A DNA stretch of 64,000 nt from Vicugna vicugna (lineage: Eukaryota): the NCBI GenBank assembly GCA_013265495.1, contig MU057584.1, positions 598,608-662,607 on the forward strand, given 5' to 3'. The position numbers were made by a program, and so were the translations under genes. How positions within the stretch are numbered: position 1 is the first letter of the stretch; each line of letters starts with the position of its first letter. The notes beneath the pieces were generated by a model. It worked only from the letters and a program-made list of their open reading frames with translations. It did not search any database and was not told where the DNA came from. Below, one piece after another: positions 40,579 through 48,354 of the stretch.

Positions 40579-43500
40579 TTAAGCCACAGGTCTGGGCTTG
40601 CCCCATTGAACCCAGTCCTGGGGGTGGTGGGCTTCCCTGGCATGCGCAGGGGTGTGCCCTGCAAAGTGACCTGACACGGCTGCCCGTGGGGCTTGGTTGG
40701 CTCCGTTGGCGGCGTGGGGGGCGTCGTGGGCAGGGGACTTGGGTGGGCTGGGCGGCTTGAGCGCACTGACCGCCCGGATGAGGCCCATGCGGCGGCGGAT
40801 GGAATGATCCAGGTTGACCGTGCAGCGCAGCAGGCTCTGCGCCTCGGCCACGGTGAAGGGGAAGTCGGAGTCCAGGAAGCGCTCGAAAAGCTCGGGGTCG
40901 CCGTCTAGGTCGAGCACGTTCTGCAGCGCCTTGGTCATGGTGTGCAGCTCGTGGCTGTTGTCGCAGAACACGTCCCAGAGGCGCGCGCGGGCGTCGGGCG
41001 CGCCCCCAGCCTGCTGCCGGTCCTCCAGGCACTGCAGCACCCAGCTGAGGCGGCATGGCCACTGGTTGGCGAGGACGACCCAAGCCACGGCCTGGCGCGG
41101 CGAGGGGCCCACGAAGTCCCCCTGCTGCTGCTGCAGCAGGCGCACAGTGATGGGCACCGTGTTGACGATGCGCCGCATGTACACCACGTTGTCGGGCACG
41201 TACTCGTAGAGGCAGTCGCGCTCGTCGTGCAGGCAGAAGAGCGCCTCCTGGATGCGGCGCGCGGCCTCGGCGTCGATGCGGCTCTGCGCGCGCTCGGCCC
41301 CCGCCCGCGTCTCCACCCCTAGGAGCCGCGTGCCCTCGCCGTCCCCCGCCCCGCCCGGCGGCCGCAGCTTGCGCGTCATCTCGCGATAGAGCAGGTCGTC
41401 GCGGCTCTGCACCGCGTCGTGCAGGAACTGCAGCTTGGTGCGGCGGCCCATGATGGGCACGGAGAAGGGCAGCGTGACGGTGCGGTTGAGGAAGAGGTAG
41501 CCATTGTCGGCCGTGCCCTTCATGGAGCCGGCGCTCTCGAGGCACGCGGCCAGGATGCTGGGGTCCACCACCAGGATGAAGATGAAGGGCGCGTGGCTGT
41601 CGGACAGCAGTGTATTCATGGCGTTGAGCACGCCCACCACGCGCTCCGGGTAGCAAGTGTCCAGCCCCGTGACCTCGAGCACAACGCGCAGCCGGCACTG
41701 CTGGTAGATCTCCAGGAAGCACAGGAAGTCAGTGAGCAGCTCCACCTCCTTCTTCACCTCGCACATGAAGCCCAGCTGGCTGCCGAACTTCTCTCGCGAC
41801 ACCAGCCGCTCAATCTTCTTGCGCTGGCTCACGAACAGGTGCTTGCCCACTGAGTACACGGCCATGAGCAGCCCGGAGCCCGACAGTGTGGTGGCCGCGC
41901 CCCCGACCACCTGGAGCAGGCTGCCGTTGGCGCCGCCGTGGCCCAGTGAGCGGCTGCCCACCGACAAGTAGAGCAGGCCCACGCCCAGGCTGAGCGCCGC
42001 CAGCAGCGCCAGCAGCGCCAGGCACACGCGCAGCCGGCAGTGCCACTCGCGTTGGCAGAAGCCCGGCGTCGCGCCCGGCTTGTTGCCCATCACCGAGTAC
42101 ACGCTGAAGGGCAGCGCGCCGTAGTGATGGCGGATGCCCTCGCACAGCGTGGTGACCAGGCCGGCCCACAGCTTGTCCGTGCCCGCGTACTGCCAGGCGC
42201 TGAAGCGGATGAAGAGGAACTTCACGTTCTTGCGCCGCAGGTGCACTTCTGTGATGACGGGCTGCAGGAACACCAGGTACCACAGAAGCTGTGGGAAGCC
42301 CCAGCCGCGCACTGACCGCGGCCTGCATTGCACGCGCTGGAGCTCCTCGGCCTCGCGCTGGGTCGCCTCCTGCTGCATCAGCGCTGCGGGGACCGAAGGC
42401 ACCCGGCGAGGGGTTGGGGGTACGGTGTGAGCAGCTGGGCTCTGGCCGCGGGGACCAGGCTCAGGCCTGGGTAGGGCCCATCCCAGAAAGCTGAGCAAGT
42501 GCAGAAGGAGAGGCCTAGAGCCAGGCTTGAACAGGAAAGAGTCTTGAGGGGGAGGTGAGGGTCAGAGGAGAGAGGCAGGGAGGGCTCTAAGGAATGAAAG
42601 AGAGCATTGGAGGTGCTGAGGAAGAGATGCTGCAAGGGCACAGCTTGGCCCAATTTTCCTGGCTTAACTGCTTTTCCTCCAGCTCACAGCTCAGCTGTCT
42701 CCTCCTCCAGGAAGTCTTCCCTGATCCCCAAGCTGGGTCAGGTGTCCCTGGCTCCCCCACCCCACTCTGGGTCATCAATTGTCTGGGGACAGGTCTGTTC
42801 CCAGGTCCCTCACTGGTCTGTGAGCCCAGGAAGGGTAGGGCTCTGGCTGTTTTGGTCACCCTGTGCCCCTTGAGCACTGAGGAAGTGCTGGGAGAATGTC
42901 TGGAGGATGGCTCACGAGAAGTTGGGGCAGGATCTGCCTGCTGTAAGGTTAGGGAGTGAACAAGTGGGAGTCACCCAGCACAGCCTAGAAGGTCCGTCAT
43001 GCTGTCTCCCTTTTCCTTATAGCCGCATCTCTTCTCCTCCCAGGACCCTGTTTGCTGTTCCGTGACAACACAGAGGCAGGATGTGGGCTTGTTTAGGAAG
43101 TGCTCACCAGGGCCAGGCATTTGGAGGTGAGTCACCTCCAGCCTCTCTGACCGTGATCAGGGCTAGGGTCTGAGCCCCCACAGGGTTGAACCAGTGCTGA
43201 GCTCCTGTGGAACTTGGCTGGGTTTCAGCTCATGTCTTCAATTAACATTATCTGCCAGGGGTCTCATGGGCACCAGGCCTGGGGCCAGGGCTGAGGAGAA
43301 GAGACGGGTCCGAGGAGCACAGAAGCCAGGAGGGACTTAGCAGGAGTGAGGAACCTGGGCTTTCTCCCTAGGATGCTGGGGAGATGTGGGAGGCTTTTGA
43401 GCAGGGGAGGAATAGGGCTTTTTAGAAAGATTCCTTGCAGTAGATTTGGTGGAGGACGGGGTGAGGCTGGAGGCCAGGAGGCTGGAGATGAAACTGGAGC

Positions 43501-46500
43501 AAGGAACTGGGGTTTGGGGGGCAGAGGCTATGGGTGTGGGGAGGGACCCGGTTAATGCTGACTTATGGGCATCTGGACTGGAGTGGACCAGCCTTAGGAG
43601 TGAGCTGGTCTTGGGGAAACCTGGGGCTGGGCAGGGACCAGAGGCTTCGTTTCCCTTAATCACCCCTCCCCCAACGCACGCAGATCCTCACCTGTGATCT
43701 TGTCCAGCATCAGGTGCAGGCGGCAGCCAAAGGGGGCATAGAAACCCACAGTCACAGGGACGGGCACGTGGCAGAGGGTCTTGGCCAGGCAGCTGCAGTA
43801 GACATCATCCTCTGTCAGGATCTCTGGGGGCCGGGGTTGAGGAGGGGGTAGAGGTGGGGAAACTGAGTCAATGAGGCTGGCCAGGCACCACCCTCCTCCC
43901 ATCTGCCCTCCCCAGTGCCTGCCCTCAGCTGCTCCCTGCACAGGGATCTCCCTCCCTGACTCCCAGAGATGACTCAGGTCAAACCCTCAGACAGAAGCAT
44001 CTGTGTCCCTCTGGGCCCCAGACCCACCAGGCAAAGGCTGGAAGGCTAGTTTCCCTCTGGCCCCGACCCAGACACGTGTGGGTACTTGGCTGCCCTGGCC
44101 TTAGGTCACCAGGCTCAGCCACCAGCCCGTGGTCCCCCTAGGAAAATCCCATGGGCTTTTCTTGAGACTCCAGGCCTGCAAATACTTAAGATACCGCTTT
44201 CCATGCTCAAAACTTCTCCGTGTCAGTTCCTTCCTCCTCTGTCAGCCTGGCTCTGAGTACAGCCGGGCCCCGACAGCCACAGGCTCCTCAGCTTCCTGCC
44301 CACTCCTTCCTCTGCTCTGTCCACCTCTCTGTGACCCTGTGCCCGCAAGTCCCTAATCCTGCCCCAGCCTGGGCAGACGCATCTTCTGGTCCTGGCCCTG
44401 CCACCTTTCTCTGCATACCGGGCAGAGTGATGCCCCTGAGAGGCTCAGTCCCCTCCTCTGAAGAGTGGGATGCAGAGATGCCAGAGAGTGTGGGTGCCAA
44501 AGGGCCTGGCCACAGGGGTGGGCCCTCTGTCAATGTCGTCGTCTGGAATGGCCCTTTAGGGCACAGGTTCTGGGGTAATTTCTGGCACAAGCATTTAATG
44601 CGCAAGCACTATAGTGTCCACTCTGCAGAGGGTGCCTGCCCTCCCGTCTCGGGCTCCCACTGAGCACTGTTTCGTGGACCCAGAGTTGGGGCACCAGAAA
44701 GGTAGGGCTCAGTGTGTGTGTGGGGGGGGCGCCAGGCTGGCCTCACAGGGCATGGTGGGGAGGAAACACCCACTTTCACAGAGGCCTGGGCTGTAGCTTC
44801 CTTCCCTCCCTGAGGGCCGGCACAGGGCCTGGAGGCATAGCTGGGAGGGCAGGAGGAAGACTCCGCCGAGGTCAGCTAAGCTGGCGGCCGGGAAGATCTG
44901 AGCCTGCTGTGCCTGGTGGCTGGCTGACCTCACCTCATCGAGCCTCTACTTCCCTTGAGTGAAATGGGCAGCGTGGCCCAGAGGCTGTAGGGACAAGGTC
45001 GTGTCTGCCTTGGGGCCAAGTCCCTGTGAAGCTGTTGTTCTGTTTTCCAACCAGACCCAACACGTACCTCCACCTCTACCTCCCTGGTCAGGCCACCAGC
45101 TCCTCTCGCCTGGACTCCAGTTTCCCACCCCCCGCCTCCTCCAGTCCACTTTCCTGTCGGATCTCAAGTCAGTGCTTGTGCCTCAGGGTCCCACCTCCCT
45201 GGGATGTCAAAAGCCGAGCCTTCACCGCGGCCAGCGGCCACGAGGCCCACAGCGTCTGGCCGCCTTCTTCCCTCTTGCACACCCTCTGATCTTCCTCCTC
45301 ACTGCCCCCTGCTCAAGCCATGTGGACCTCCTTGCCTCCCCCTGGCCCCAACAGAATCTTTGCATTTGCTGATCCTGCTGCCACTTACTTGAGAGAACTG
45401 CCCCATCTTTGCTCAAATGTCACCTTCGTGGGGCTTCACCTGATGATCCTGTTTAATTTGCCAACCCTGATGCGCCCTCCTCTCTCCTTGCTTTATTCTT
45501 CCCCATCCTGGTTATCAGCTGGTGACACACTTTTGAACTTTGCTACTTATCTTGTTTCTTGTGTCCGCCCCTCCCACCCCACCACCATGGACCCTGAGCT
45601 CCACAAAGGCGATGATCTCTGTCTGCCCAGCTTCCTGGGGCACCCCCAGAACAGCACCTGGTACCCACTACAGGGTCCAGCACCACCTAGTCACAGAATG
45701 AATGAGTGAGTGTGTGAGTGAGGGGGTGGGTGGAACCCCTCCCATGGCTGCCTTGCTCTCTCCATCCCCTAGGCTGCTTCCTACCTCCTGCTTTAGCCGC
45801 ACACTTGACCCGTCTCCCCCATACCAGAGCTGGCCAACAAGCGGGTGTGCGCGGCCCCCTGCTCCAAGTCCTCTGCAGAGGAAGGGCAGGGAAGAGAGAA
45901 AGCAGAGCTAGGGTGTCAGCAGAGGGTGAGAGCTGGGGCCCAGGCCCCTGGCCAGCCCAGGACGGGGGCACTGTGGACAGGCCCGGCCTAGAAGCTTGGA
46001 TCCCAGCAGGTGAAGCAGGGGTGGCCGCCCGAGGCCCAGGGCAAGGGACCAGAGCAAGGGGTGAGGATGGCAGGCCCTAGGCCCAGGTGGGAAGCGAGGC
46101 AGCAGGGACAGAGTCCTGGGAAGGCAGGGTAAGCACCGGAGCTGTAGGAGGTGAAGGAGCCATAGGCAGTGGGGGCAGGCAGGGGCCGAGCCTCAGTGGG
46201 CCTGCTGGGCTCCAGGAGGGTGCCGGTGGCGGAGGGCAGGGCCGGGCTGCTGCTGGCCGTGGTGTGTGCCGTGGTGGGTGCGGGGGGCGGCTGGGGGGCG
46301 CTGGCTGGTTGTACGGGGGCAGTTGAGGTGGCAGGCATCCCCTTCTGGGCCCTTTGGGCAGGGTAGAGCCGCTGCCGCAGGGGGCTGGGAGCTGGGGCCT
46401 GGGGCTGCCACCGCTGCTGCTGCTGCTGCAGGAGCGGGGGCTGGGGGCCCCAGCGACAGCCGCCGACACACCCCCTGTGGCTGTGGTAGGCCAACTGCCA

Positions 46501-47552
46501 GCATGCCTGGGGGAGCGGCCAACAGGGCCCGTGGGCTCCAGGTGCTGCTAGGTCATGGCACCACTGATGACAGCATCCTGGAAGGAAGGAAGTGGGGGTG
46601 ACTGGGCCTGGGTCCCTGACCCCTGAGGGGCACCAGCAGGAACCAGGTCAGATCTTCAGGTGCAGGCTGGGGCTTATCTCTCAGCTGAGGCTCAAGAGGA
46701 GTTGGGGAAAATGACGAGGTGGGTGTGGGCAGAGGGGCCCCACTCTGTGCTCTTCCACAGGTCAGGGGAGAAGAGGTCCAGGGGCCTGGACTCTAGCCAG
46801 GTGAGGGGCTGGAGAGGGCATGATGCCCCAGAGTCCCTGCTACCCCAAAATCATTGGTCCCTGGGGTGTCCCCAGTGAGGGGGGACTGAGAGCAATCCAT
46901 TGGGAGCTGGCCTCATTGGTCCAGAGGAGGCCAGAGTGATGGGCGGTGGCTGTGGGGAGGGGGCTGGCATGGGGACTGAGAAGGGGGTTGGCCTTTGCAC
47001 CTGGGCTCAGAATAGGCCAGCAGGAATGGGGCTGCCCTGGGAGGCAAGGAGGCTGAATCAGCCCTAATGGGGGCTAACTGCCCCCTCTGAACCCCGGGCA
47101 GGAGCACCTGCGGTCACCGTGGGAGGCTGAACCCCCGCCTTGTTCGAATACACTCAGCGTGGGGCGGGGGCTCGCTCTCCTACCCACACCCAAAGCTGCC
47201 ATGTTGTGGGGCAGTCCCCACAGGCCTGGCGATCTGGGGAGGGGATTCTTTCCATGCTGGGGAAGGGGCAGGCCGGGTGGGCCTCCCCCGCTGGCATCCC
47301 AGCTCAGGCTCCCACCTTTGGCCCTCTGTGCGGAAGCCTCTGATGGTGAGCGCTGGTGGCATTTTCCCCTGGGGCCTGAGGTTTTCTGCTTAGCAATCCA
47401 CTCAGCAGCCCCCAACTCACAGGCCTTTCTCCCTGCCAGACCCCCCAAACTGAACCCCTACCTTTTTGGTGCCCCATTTCCGGGTCCAAGAAATAGCAGT
47501 CGGTGGGCGGCCGGGAGCCCTTGGCGAAGTGGACGGTGTAGTGCTTGTGCAT
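40579..47552 (-). CDS. NKPD1: NTPase KAP family P-loop domain-containing protein 1, 822 aa: complement(join(47552-47462,46577-46137,43823-43692,42383-40579))
   Basis: ATG in good Kozak context (gccaccATG). Exons read MHKHYTVHFAKG...DPEMGHQK / GCCHQW...GSFTSYSS / EILTEDDVYCSCLAKTLCHVPVPVTVGFYAPFGCRLHLMLDKIT / ALMQQE...FIRFSAWQYAGTDKLWAGL... with hydrophobic TM-like segments, ending GKPRPVA-TAA. All introns are GT-AG and phase 1. FSAWQY is the typical KAP-family motif. Confidence 0.95.
40690..42410. other. Intragenic CpG island covering the NKPD1 last exon
   Basis: Visibly very high GC and CpG density compared with the flanking CpG-depleted DNA. Confidence 0.75.
44598..44715 (+). pseudogene. 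Inverted, frameshifted copy of NKPD1 first coding exon inside the intron between NKPD1 coding exons 2 and 3
   Basis: Removing a 13-nt insertion (44646-44658) gives MRKHYSVHSAEGACPPTEHCFVDPELGHQKG versus the true MHKHYTVHFAKGSRPPTDCYFLDPEMGHQKG (20/31 aa, 68/91 nt by hand count), with the same AAAG|GTAGGG donor. Confidence 0.85.
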
Positions 47553-48354
47553 GGTGGCCGGGGGTCTGTGTAGAGAGGAGTGGGGCAGGGCCAGGCTCAG
47601 TGCCCAGCCCTCTCAGGCCCCAGCAAGGGCCCCCCACCCTTCACCATGACAGCTCCCTGTGACCTGAGATGGATGAGAGACCTCGTCCCTGATGTTGGGG
47701 GCCTGGGTCACCCAGGTGGGGCAGAGGGGCTCTTCTGAGTAACAGTGAGAGGTCAGGACAGGGGACGGATGGCCAGACGTGGGAGGACAGAGAACAGTTG
47801 GGGGGGTGTTAGGGGCTAATTTGGGGTGGGTAAGGTTTCCAAGGGTTAGGTAATTGGGTGTTTGGGAGCTGCTAGGAATTTCCAAGAGGCCAGGACAGTG
47901 GCGGTGCTGAGCAGACAGAATCTGGGAGCCGGTGGGTAGTTGAGTAAAAATAAGGGGGACCTAGGCACTGGGGTGTATGCTGTGGAAGGTGGGGCCCCTT
48001 TCCCACCTCAGTGTGGTGAGAGGTGGGAAGCAGTGAGCCACAAGTGCCTGAAATTTCGGGGCTGGGACATTCGGTTGGAGGGTTGGAGGGAGGGGGACTC
48101 TAGGGGAGCAAATGAAATCAGGGTGGTCTGATTTGGGGAGAGGCTCAGCCTACTGGGGATGAGATGAAGTGCTCTGGATTTAAAATGTCAAGAGCCCAAA
48201 GCAGAAGTGAAGGAAGGATGCTGTTTGGAGGCGGGGACAGGGGAAGCCCTGAGACAGAGGAAACAGGGTGATGAGAGTAAGGGTCAGTGAGGGTTGGGGG
48301 CTAGGCACGTGGCCCCTGCCCACTCCCATCCCCCCAGTCCGGGGTCCCACGTAC

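Follow-up and report, generated by a model that had tools for sequence, protein, structure and literature searches.

The window, by which we mean the whole 64-kb stretch of DNA that was analyzed, carries NKPD1, the gene for NTPase KAP family P-loop domain-containing protein 1, on its minus strand. This gene is both the host and the parent of an inverted copy of its own first coding exon. The host was identified through its large exon, which shares 600 of 602 aligned residues with isoform X3 of Vicugna pacos NKPD1 and contains the KAP_NTPase domain (PF07693, E 2e-17, 63.7 bits with a cut-off of 20). The NKPD1 exons relevant to this analysis are the following:

40582..42561, minus strand: open frame that contains the large last exon of NKPD1 with its KAP_NTPase domain, by which the host gene was identified
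45785..45872, minus strand: cassette exon of NKPD1, 88 nt, with acceptor cttcctctgcag/AGGAC and donor CAGGAG/gtaggaag; antisense to a second exon proposed earlier on the plus strand
46137..46577, minus strand: coding exon 2 of NKPD1, 441 nt, with acceptor ttccag/GATGC and donor CTCCG/gtgctt
47462..47552, minus strand: first coding exon of NKPD1, parent of the copy, 91 nt, phase 1, with peptide MHKHYTVHFAKGSRPPTDCYFLDPEMGHQK-G

The GC content at third codon positions (GC3) ranges from 0.80 to 0.92 in the NKPD1 exons. The cassette exon encodes the peptide RTWSRGPRTPACWPALVWGRRVKCAAKAG, which matches predicted dromedary isoforms, and has a stop in the canonical exon-1 phase. Predictions for camel and many other mammals include NKPD1 isoforms that skip exon 2 (...HQK/[DE]ILTEDD).

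The copy lies on the plus strand, in the intron between NKPD1 exon 2 (46577-46137 on the minus strand) and exon 3. The features associated with it, and with the second exon to which it had been joined, are:

44598..44701, plus strand: frame-broken inverted copy of NKPD1 coding exon 1, very likely a relic, 104 nt
44634..44646, plus strand: the 13 nt by which the copy exceeds the camelid parent, in the placement that best fits the outgroups; four codons for A-C-P-P and 1 further nt
44661..44663, plus strand: premature TGA in the ATG frame, after the frame shift, closing an ORF that ends in ...ACPPVSGSH-stop
44702..44716, plus strand: beginning of intron 1 copied along with the exon, including the donor (AAAG/gtaggg, with the same core as the parent donor); end of the similarity
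45406..45505, unstranded: old dispersed repeat in the supposed plus-strand intron, with at least 2 other places in the genome at 72-77%
45773..46080, plus strand: second exon as proposed earlier, an open frame no longer than expected by chance in DNA with 67% GC, with no homologues found in the searches described below

Overall, positions 44598-44716 on the plus strand are homologous to coding exon 1 and the first 15 bases of its intron (47552-47446 on the minus strand). Within the 64-kb window, blastn aligns copy and parent over 120 columns with 70.0% identity, 3 gaps and E 3.2e-9, and the next best non-self match has E 0.037. A second scoring of the same match returns E 3.4e-12, and the core of the copy scores z = 25.0 when compared to dinucleotide shuffles. 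The similarity begins exactly at the ATG and stops 15 nt past the donor. A sequence-only reading of this DNA had described a diverged copy of coding exon 1, similar from the ATG through the donor and located between coding exons 2 and 3, and all of this stands. It had also correctly placed the TGA (44661-44663), the AG of the proposed acceptor (45771-45772) and the final TAG (46078-46080), and a count by hand returned the same 20 of 31 identical residues for the repaired reading.

The ATG frame of the copy reads MRKHYSVHSAEGACP, and the frame one base out reads PSRAPTEHCFVDPELGHQK. The duplicated part comprises only the 31-34-residue N-terminal peptide, and the KAP NTPase domain is absent from the copy. 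The start context of its ATG is poor, with T at -3. When flanks of 100, 200 and 400 nt were compared on both sides, no homology was detected (z between -0.90 and 1.32 against dinucleotide shuffles). Looking for plus-strand copies of the other NKPD1 exons returned none, and exon 1 alone was copied. A search of the 2.03-Gb assembly with the exon-1 peptide returned two matches only, the parent and the copy; the DNA of the copy matches only itself, and its upstream flank is single-copy, all these counts being lower bounds. Since the matches of the peptide are limited to parent and copy, the copy is not a dispersed repeat. A search of Rfam with positions 43900-47700 returned a single match at chance level (E 0.95, 17.7 bits compared to a gathering score of 38.3), and, among the NKPD1 papers listed, titles and abstract openings mention neither an internal duplication nor an antisense gene.

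The broken frame of the copy had been ascribed to a single insertion of 13 nt. This turned out to be an artifact of comparing the copy with the camelid parent only, as the NKPD1 proteins of outgroups identify about 9 of the 13 nt as ancestral codons missing from the parent. We relied on 94 NKPD1-type proteins in which the exon-1 peptide could be identified, and determined the spacing from the initial M to the D of D-P-E. This spacing is 25 (the long form) in 49 proteins, 24 in 5, 22 in 39, including both camel entries, and 21 in 1. Exon 1 is thus longer in other mammals, and the camelid parent has lost three codons that are still present in the copy, whose A-C-P-P corresponds to A-L-P-P/S in other mammals. 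The two reading pieces of the copy align to the long form of exon 1 and overlap at one column. The copy thus retains A-C-P-P at a place where the parent has no counterpart. Of the 13 nt, 4 are the copy's own surplus, and the remaining 9 or so stem from ancestral codons that have disappeared from the parent. The retention of the three codons also implies that the duplication is older than the deletion in the parent, which is common to alpaca and camels. More generally, it can be misleading to compare a copy only with its parent in the same genome: here, most of an apparent 13-nt insertion in the copy goes back to sequence deleted from the parent.

The same lesion recurs in a related species. 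A 157-aa open frame running into the copy was used as a query, and among 306 candidates the sole match was P0001, an ORF in a contig of the one relative compared, which also ends in ...ACPPVSGSH-stop. Within the copy, P0001 differs at 2 of 21 residues (K3E and H4R); in the translation of the adjoining intron, a hand count on the alignment returned 6 changes over about 112 residues, and upstream of these the frame changes as well.

To characterize the substitutions, we compared the 27 unambiguously aligned codons of copy and parent, where 7 of the changed codons are synonymous and 9 are non-synonymous. The resulting pN/pS is 0.25, a value as low as this occurring in 0.7% of 2630 simulations of random substitution; it combines the branches of copy and parent. 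Taken alone, this ratio would suggest constraint. We attribute it to purifying selection on the parent branch and to CpG decay at third positions, two effects that are not cleanly separable with 19 differences. All four alignable CpGs of the parent are TG or CA in the copy, and GC3 is 0.60-0.68 in the copy compared to 0.87 in the parent. Both the CpG decay and the loss of GC3 fit neutrality. At individual positions, the copy has S at position 9, where 80 of the 94 orthologues have F, and E at position 11, where 86 of the 94 have K; the residue preceding D-P-E is V, which is found in none of the 94. When the replacements were polarised by hand against the orthologue consensus, about 7 fell on the side of the copy and about 3 on the side of the parent.

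Searches for intact copies elsewhere returned none. A degenerate 28-letter pattern for the end of the exon (D-P-E-x-G-H-Q-K-G/gta) matched no stretch in metagenome contigs. The 65-aa ORF in the second frame of the copy had two matches among 1.84 billion representatives, P0122 and P0123, neither of them an intact version of the copy. We judged the match to P0122, a protein of repetitive sequence, to be spurious. P0123 has E-H-C-F in common with the query, and we read it as the parent-type exon 1 of another mammal because its first 34 residues match the pattern of the NKPD1 N-terminus of Sorex araneus (P0065).

The sequence-only reading had also joined the copied donor to a phase-compatible second exon at 45773..46080. 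This open frame does no better than chance. At least 101 open codons follow 7.3% of all plus-strand positions in 43000-48000. The 11 crude acceptors downstream of the copied donor open 112, 93, 90, 82, 12, 63, 102, 94, 54, 14 and 13 codons in phase 1, so that two of them give at least 100 codons and six at least 80. The GC content at the three codon positions is 0.73, 0.68 and 0.58, with the third position lowest, and is not coding-like. The proposed exon does not overlap NKPD1 coding exon 2, to which its best BLASTP match has E 1.3 and with which no nucleotide match was found. It has no Pfam family, and none of 60 candidates from 5.8 billion protein clusters, within the length range searched, reached E <= 0.01. 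We read it as a frame that happens to be open in the GC-rich DNA of the intron.

Putting these data together, we consider it very likely that 44598-44716 is a non-functional relic, that is, a dead pseudo-exon. We infer that a small inverted duplication, of which about 120 nt are still detectable, copied coding exon 1 with its donor before the camelid parent exon lost its three codons. The copy would have landed on the opposite strand in the present intron 2, about 2.8 kb downstream, and then probably drifted like intron DNA. A net gain of 4 nt would have shifted its frame into the TGA, while CpGs and third-position GC were presumably lost and replacements accrued at positions that NKPD1 orthologues conserve. 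The similarity may be limited to the region from the ATG through the donor because only there one of the two partners, the working parent exon, was held by selection, while the unconstrained flanks diverged. Under this model, it is coincidental that the similarity starts exactly at the ATG. One point against a relic is that the core of the copied donor is the same as in the working parent donor, and it could therefore be used if the plus strand were transcribed.

The sequence-only reading had gone further and proposed a nested antisense gene encoding a protein of about 132 aa, composed of the copied exon 1 and 45773-46080, disabled here and possibly functional in other mammals. Its first part, an old inverted duplication of the first coding exon, holds, while the two-exon gene is not supported, given the broken frame, the minority residues and the unsupported second exon. 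A real copy with ATG and donor, the pN/pS of 0.25 against the parent, and a pyrimidine-rich AG at 45772, from which the phase-1 join stays open for 102 codons including the split codon, all speak for such a gene. However, the frame is broken here and in the related species (P0001), conserved positions bear minority or unseen residues, the start context is poor (T at -3), and the search of 1.84 billion representatives with the second frame of the copy yielded no intact version. Furthermore, the proposed exon 2 shows no relationship to its NKPD1 counterpart, is without detected relatives in 5.8 billion clusters, has its lowest GC content at third positions and is of ordinary open length (2 of 11 crude acceptors reach 100 codons and 6 of 11 reach 80). 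We regard the gene as highly improbable. If real, it would be a rare instance of an inverted exon copy giving rise to a new gene, a view that the evidence does not back. The plus strand could instead be transcribed into a spliced non-coding antisense RNA, a lncRNA that uses the donor at 44701 and extends across NKPD1 exon 2 and the promoter. The identity between the cores of the copied and the working donor and the several pyrimidine-rich AGs downstream are in agreement with it, but the region of the proposed acceptor has well-formed splice sites on the minus strand, where the cassette exon is predicted in dromedary, and none of the listed papers that mention both NKPD1 and antisense deals with such a transcript by its title. 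We consider the non-coding RNA quite unlikely.

A further alternative is that the copy acts in cis, within the NKPD1 pre-mRNA. Exon 1 and its antisense copy would form an imperfect duplex of about 105 bp bracketing exon 2, which could mask the exon-1 donor, loop out exon 2 and so modulate its skipping, or provide a substrate for editing. The predicted duplex reaches -134 kcal/mol, while 320 other 119-nt stretches of the pre-mRNA average -61 +/- 9.6 (rank 1 of 321), and the isoforms lacking exon 2 predicted in camel and many other mammals are in line with such a role. Yet this energy is trivially expected from any inverted repeat, and the skipping of exon 2 is predicted across mammals, whatever the presence of the copy there may be. 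Among the 19 differences between copy and parent, only 4 are wobble-preserving transitions, compared to 10 pair-breaking transitions and 5 transversions, and we therefore see no sign of selection for pairing. Moreover, the parent lost 9 nt in the middle of the duplex with no matching change in the copy. We consider a cis-acting structure unlikely. Its more specific form, in which the inverted relic predates camelids and was kept because its pairing with exon 1 and the donor across 2.8 kb tunes exon-2 skipping, is decidedly unlikely; were it true, a copied exon would have been put to use as an RNA switch acting on NKPD1, the gene from which it came. Finally, both stretches could derive from a dispersed repeat or transposon rather than from a local duplication. 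Nothing specific speaks for this origin apart from the old dispersed repeat nearby (45406-45505), and we find it scarcely credible given that the exon-1 peptide detects only parent and copy in the assembly, the DNA of the copy matches only itself and its upstream flank is single-copy (lower bounds in all cases). A decaying relic thus remains our preferred reading of the locus.

Several known systems resemble the arrangement at NKPD1. Long-range intramolecular RNA pairings between conserved complementary regions loop out exons in pre-mRNAs. Similarly, two complementary segments of the NKPD1 pre-mRNA flank an alternatively skipped exon and have a strong predicted duplex; unlike in those systems, the substitutions do not preserve pairing and one of the arms is a coding exon with its own donor. 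As in nested or antisense genes and natural antisense transcripts, the copy lies on the opposite strand within an intron of the host and comes with an ATG, a donor and an AG that could serve as acceptor, but it differs from them in that no intact frame, conserved second exon or homologues were found here.

The closest parallel is with the intronic relics of duplicated exons, which are dead pseudo-exons left by small intragenic duplications. Like them, the NKPD1 copy duplicates one exon and its splice site locally, within an intron of the gene it came from; a frameshift has disabled it, and its composition is moving toward that of intron DNA. As one more small intragenic duplication in decay, it has little biological weight. 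Unlike them, it is inverted and not in tandem, and the host gene therefore cannot use it as a cassette exon. As a molecular fossil it also differs from those relics, in that three codons of the ancestral long-form NKPD1 exon 1 survive in it but are gone from the working exon of camelids.

On the plus strand, 44598-44716 is very probably a real, old, inverted copy of the first coding exon of NKPD1, now reduced to a dead relic. Because the exons of the host gene can be placed at 47552-47462 and 46577-46137, the copy falls within the intron that follows exon 2, where a sequence-only reading had located it. The features of the locus are the following.

40582-42561, minus strand: large open frame with a KAP_NTPase domain (PF07693, E 2e-17), last NKPD1 exon
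46577-46137, minus strand: NKPD1 exon 2, 441 nt, from the window sequence and orthologues
47552-47462, minus strand: NKPD1 exon 1, from the window sequence and orthologues
45872-45785, minus strand: 88-nt NKPD1 cassette exon, acceptor cttcctctgcag/AGGAC, donor CAGGAG/gtaggaag
45406-45505: old dispersed repeat in the supposed plus-strand intron, matched by two other places in the genome at 72-77%

We compared a 701-nt query with the 64-kb window by blastn, and the copy aligned to 47552-47446 of the minus strand with 70.0% identity over 120 columns and 3 gaps (E 3.2e-9; E 3.4e-12 under a second scoring). The next best non-self match in the window had an E of 0.037. The aligned stretch starts precisely at the ATG and stops 15 nt beyond the donor, and these limits, together with the E value and a z of 25.0 for the homologous core against dinucleotide shuffles, confirm the previously noticed similarity from the ATG through the donor. 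The coordinates of the TGA (44661-44663), the AG (45771-45772) and the TAG (46078-46080) also proved correct. Flanks of 100, 200 and 400 nt on both sides are at shuffle level (z -0.90 to 1.32), and no second homologous block was found between 44000-46700 (+) and the whole NKPD1 minus strand, where only palindromic low-complexity self-matches appeared. Judged from the alignments, it is exon 1 alone of NKPD1 that was duplicated. When the 30-residue exon-1 peptide was searched in six frames against the 2.03-Gb assembly of the same animal, it matched the parent (E 4e-16) and the second half of the copy (E 4.1, 63% over residues 12-30). Since these were the sole matches, we rejected a dispersed repeat family as the origin of the copy. 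The copy DNA and its upstream flank each match only themselves in this assembly, counts that are lower bounds.

The identity of the host gene is clear from the open frame at 40582-42561, which retrieved 402 proteins at E <= 1e-20; among the best 120 of the 402, nearly all are named NKPD1. The top match, with 600 of 602 aligned residues identical, is Vicugna pacos NKPD1 isoform X3, which marks the window as camelid. Against the named alpaca protein P0002, 2 of 602 aligned columns differ, one being a gap; by eye, the exon of the window has one substitution and a poly-Q run shorter by one glutamine. In camel and many mammalian orders, predicted isoforms skip the 441-nt exon 2 (...HQK/[DE]ILTEDD). 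A candidate acceptor, ctctacacag/A, lies at about 47566 (-), 14 nt before the start codon of NKPD1, and fits the TRAPPC6A-NKPD1 read-through proteins (PF04051 plus PF07693) predicted in camelids, naked mole-rat, chinchilla, macaque and others.

The sequence-only reading had further proposed a nested antisense gene, in which the copied exon is joined to a phase-compatible second exon at 45773-46080. This gene is not supported, as the frame is broken, the copy shows signs of decay and the second exon lacks homologues. The proposed second exon resembles NKPD1 exon 2 neither in nucleotide nor in protein sequence (best protein E 1.3), none of 60 candidates reached E <= 0.01 in a search of 5.8 billion clusters restricted to proteins of 65-209 residues, and no Pfam family matched. 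Its GC content by codon position (0.73/0.68/0.58) is the reverse of that of the host exons, whose GC3 is 0.80-0.92. Its open length is commonplace: at least 101 open codons follow 7.3% of plus-strand positions in 43000-48000, where local GC is 61-67%, and of 11 crude acceptor candidates in phase 1, two give at least 100 open codons and six at least 80. Antisense to it lies the 88-nt cassette exon, which is well formed, with strong splice sites, and whose peptide is present with one residue different in the predicted dromedary NKPD1 isoforms P0006 and P0008; it has a stop in the canonical exon-1 phase and would therefore act as a poison exon. The repeat at 45406-45505 may be a MIR-type SINE that ends near 45715.

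Several observations point to decay of the copy. At conserved positions it carries minority residues: S instead of the F seen in 80 of 94 orthologues, E instead of K (86 of 94), C instead of Y (70 of 94), and a V found in none of the 94. All four parental CpGs alignable to the copy are now TG or CA, and GC3 is 0.60-0.68 in the copy versus 0.87 in the parent. An open frame from a related species that runs into the copy (P0001, Logan contig) has 84% identity overall and terminates at the same ...ACPPVSGSH-stop. It differs from the copy in 2 of 21 residues, K3E and H4R, and from the adjoining intron translation by 6 changes in about 112 residues (counted by hand on the alignment), and it changes frame upstream of the copy, as is typical of non-coding DNA. 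The single result contrary to decay is a copy/parent pN/pS of 0.25, which was equally low in only 0.7% of 2630 random-substitution simulations and spans the two branches jointly. The 27 unambiguous codons differ at 19 nucleotides; 10 of these differences are at third positions, and 4 of the 10 are CpG transitions. Replacements polarised by hand against the orthologue consensus fall about 7 on the copy side and 3 on the parent side. Given this imbalance, the CpG transitions and purifying selection on the parent, we would not take the low ratio as constraint on the copy, although the number of sites is small. Divergence from the parent is 23% over 82 ungapped sites, or about 0.28 substitutions per site (Jukes-Cantor, hand arithmetic), which suggests, as a rough estimate, an age of many tens of millions of years.

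Translated in the ATG frame the copy gives MRKHYSVHSAEGACP, and one base out of frame it gives PSRAPTEHCFVDPELGHQK; the camelid parent reads MHKHYTVHFAKGSRPPTDCYFLDPEMGHQK. Exon 1 is longer in most other mammals; that of cheetah, for instance, reads MHKHYTVHFAKGALPSRTPAERYFLDPELGRHKG. The spacing from the M to the D of the D-P-E motif, measured in 94 proteins whose exon-1 peptide could be identified, is 25 in 49, 24 in 5, 22 in 39, including both camel entries, and 21 in 1. The two reading pieces of the copy together tile the long form with a one-column overlap (alignment A1): its A-C-P-P stands at the place of the A-L-P-P/S that other mammals have and that is absent from the camelid parent, and from S-R onward its S-R-A-P-T-E aligns with the parental S-R-P-P-T-D. 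Hence the frameshift ascribed to a single 13-nt insertion is real, but most of the surplus is not an insertion in the copy. With the best placement at 44634-44646, about 9 of the 13 nt belong to ancestral codons that the parent no longer has, and the copy's own lesion is a net 4 nt, a frameshift all the same. Because the copy retains these codons, the sequences indicate that it is older than the camelid-wide three-codon deletion of its parent, and this loss precedes the alpaca/camel split, since the named proteins of Camelus are of the short form. Other Laurasiatheria, Afrotheria and Xenarthra have three codons more in exon 1 than camelids. The short exon 1 of primates, rodents and their kin apparently arose by an independent deletion.

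As the copy and exon 1 lie in opposite orientation in one transcription unit, exon 1 of the NKPD1 pre-mRNA could pair with the antisense of the copy, in a duplex that would bracket exon 2. The predicted duplex, at -134 kcal/mol, ranks 1 of 321 (-61 +/- 9.6 in 320 other pre-mRNA windows), and the bracketed exon is skipped in isoforms predicted for camel and many other mammals. The substitutions, however, do not preferentially preserve pairs (4 are transitions that keep a wobble pair, 10 are pair-breaking transitions and 5 are transversions), and the 9-nt loss of the parent is unmatched by any change in the copy. We therefore consider a structural role improbable and prefer the dead relic.

A metagenome scan with a pattern for the end of the exon gave no matches, an Rfam search of 43900-47700 gave none above chance, and among the NKPD1 papers listed no title concerned an antisense gene or internal duplication. 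A representative-library protein search with the second frame of the copy returned two matches, a repeat protein, judged spurious, and P0123, an intact exon-1-type Logan ORF of 107 aa. The latter has E-H-C-F in common with the copy and, like the camelid parent, contains G-S-R-P-P. We rejected it as an intact copy: because its N-terminus fits the pattern of Sorex araneus (shrew) NKPD1, we take it to be the parent exon of another mammal, and the residues that it has in common with the two camelid sequences look like recurrent changes.
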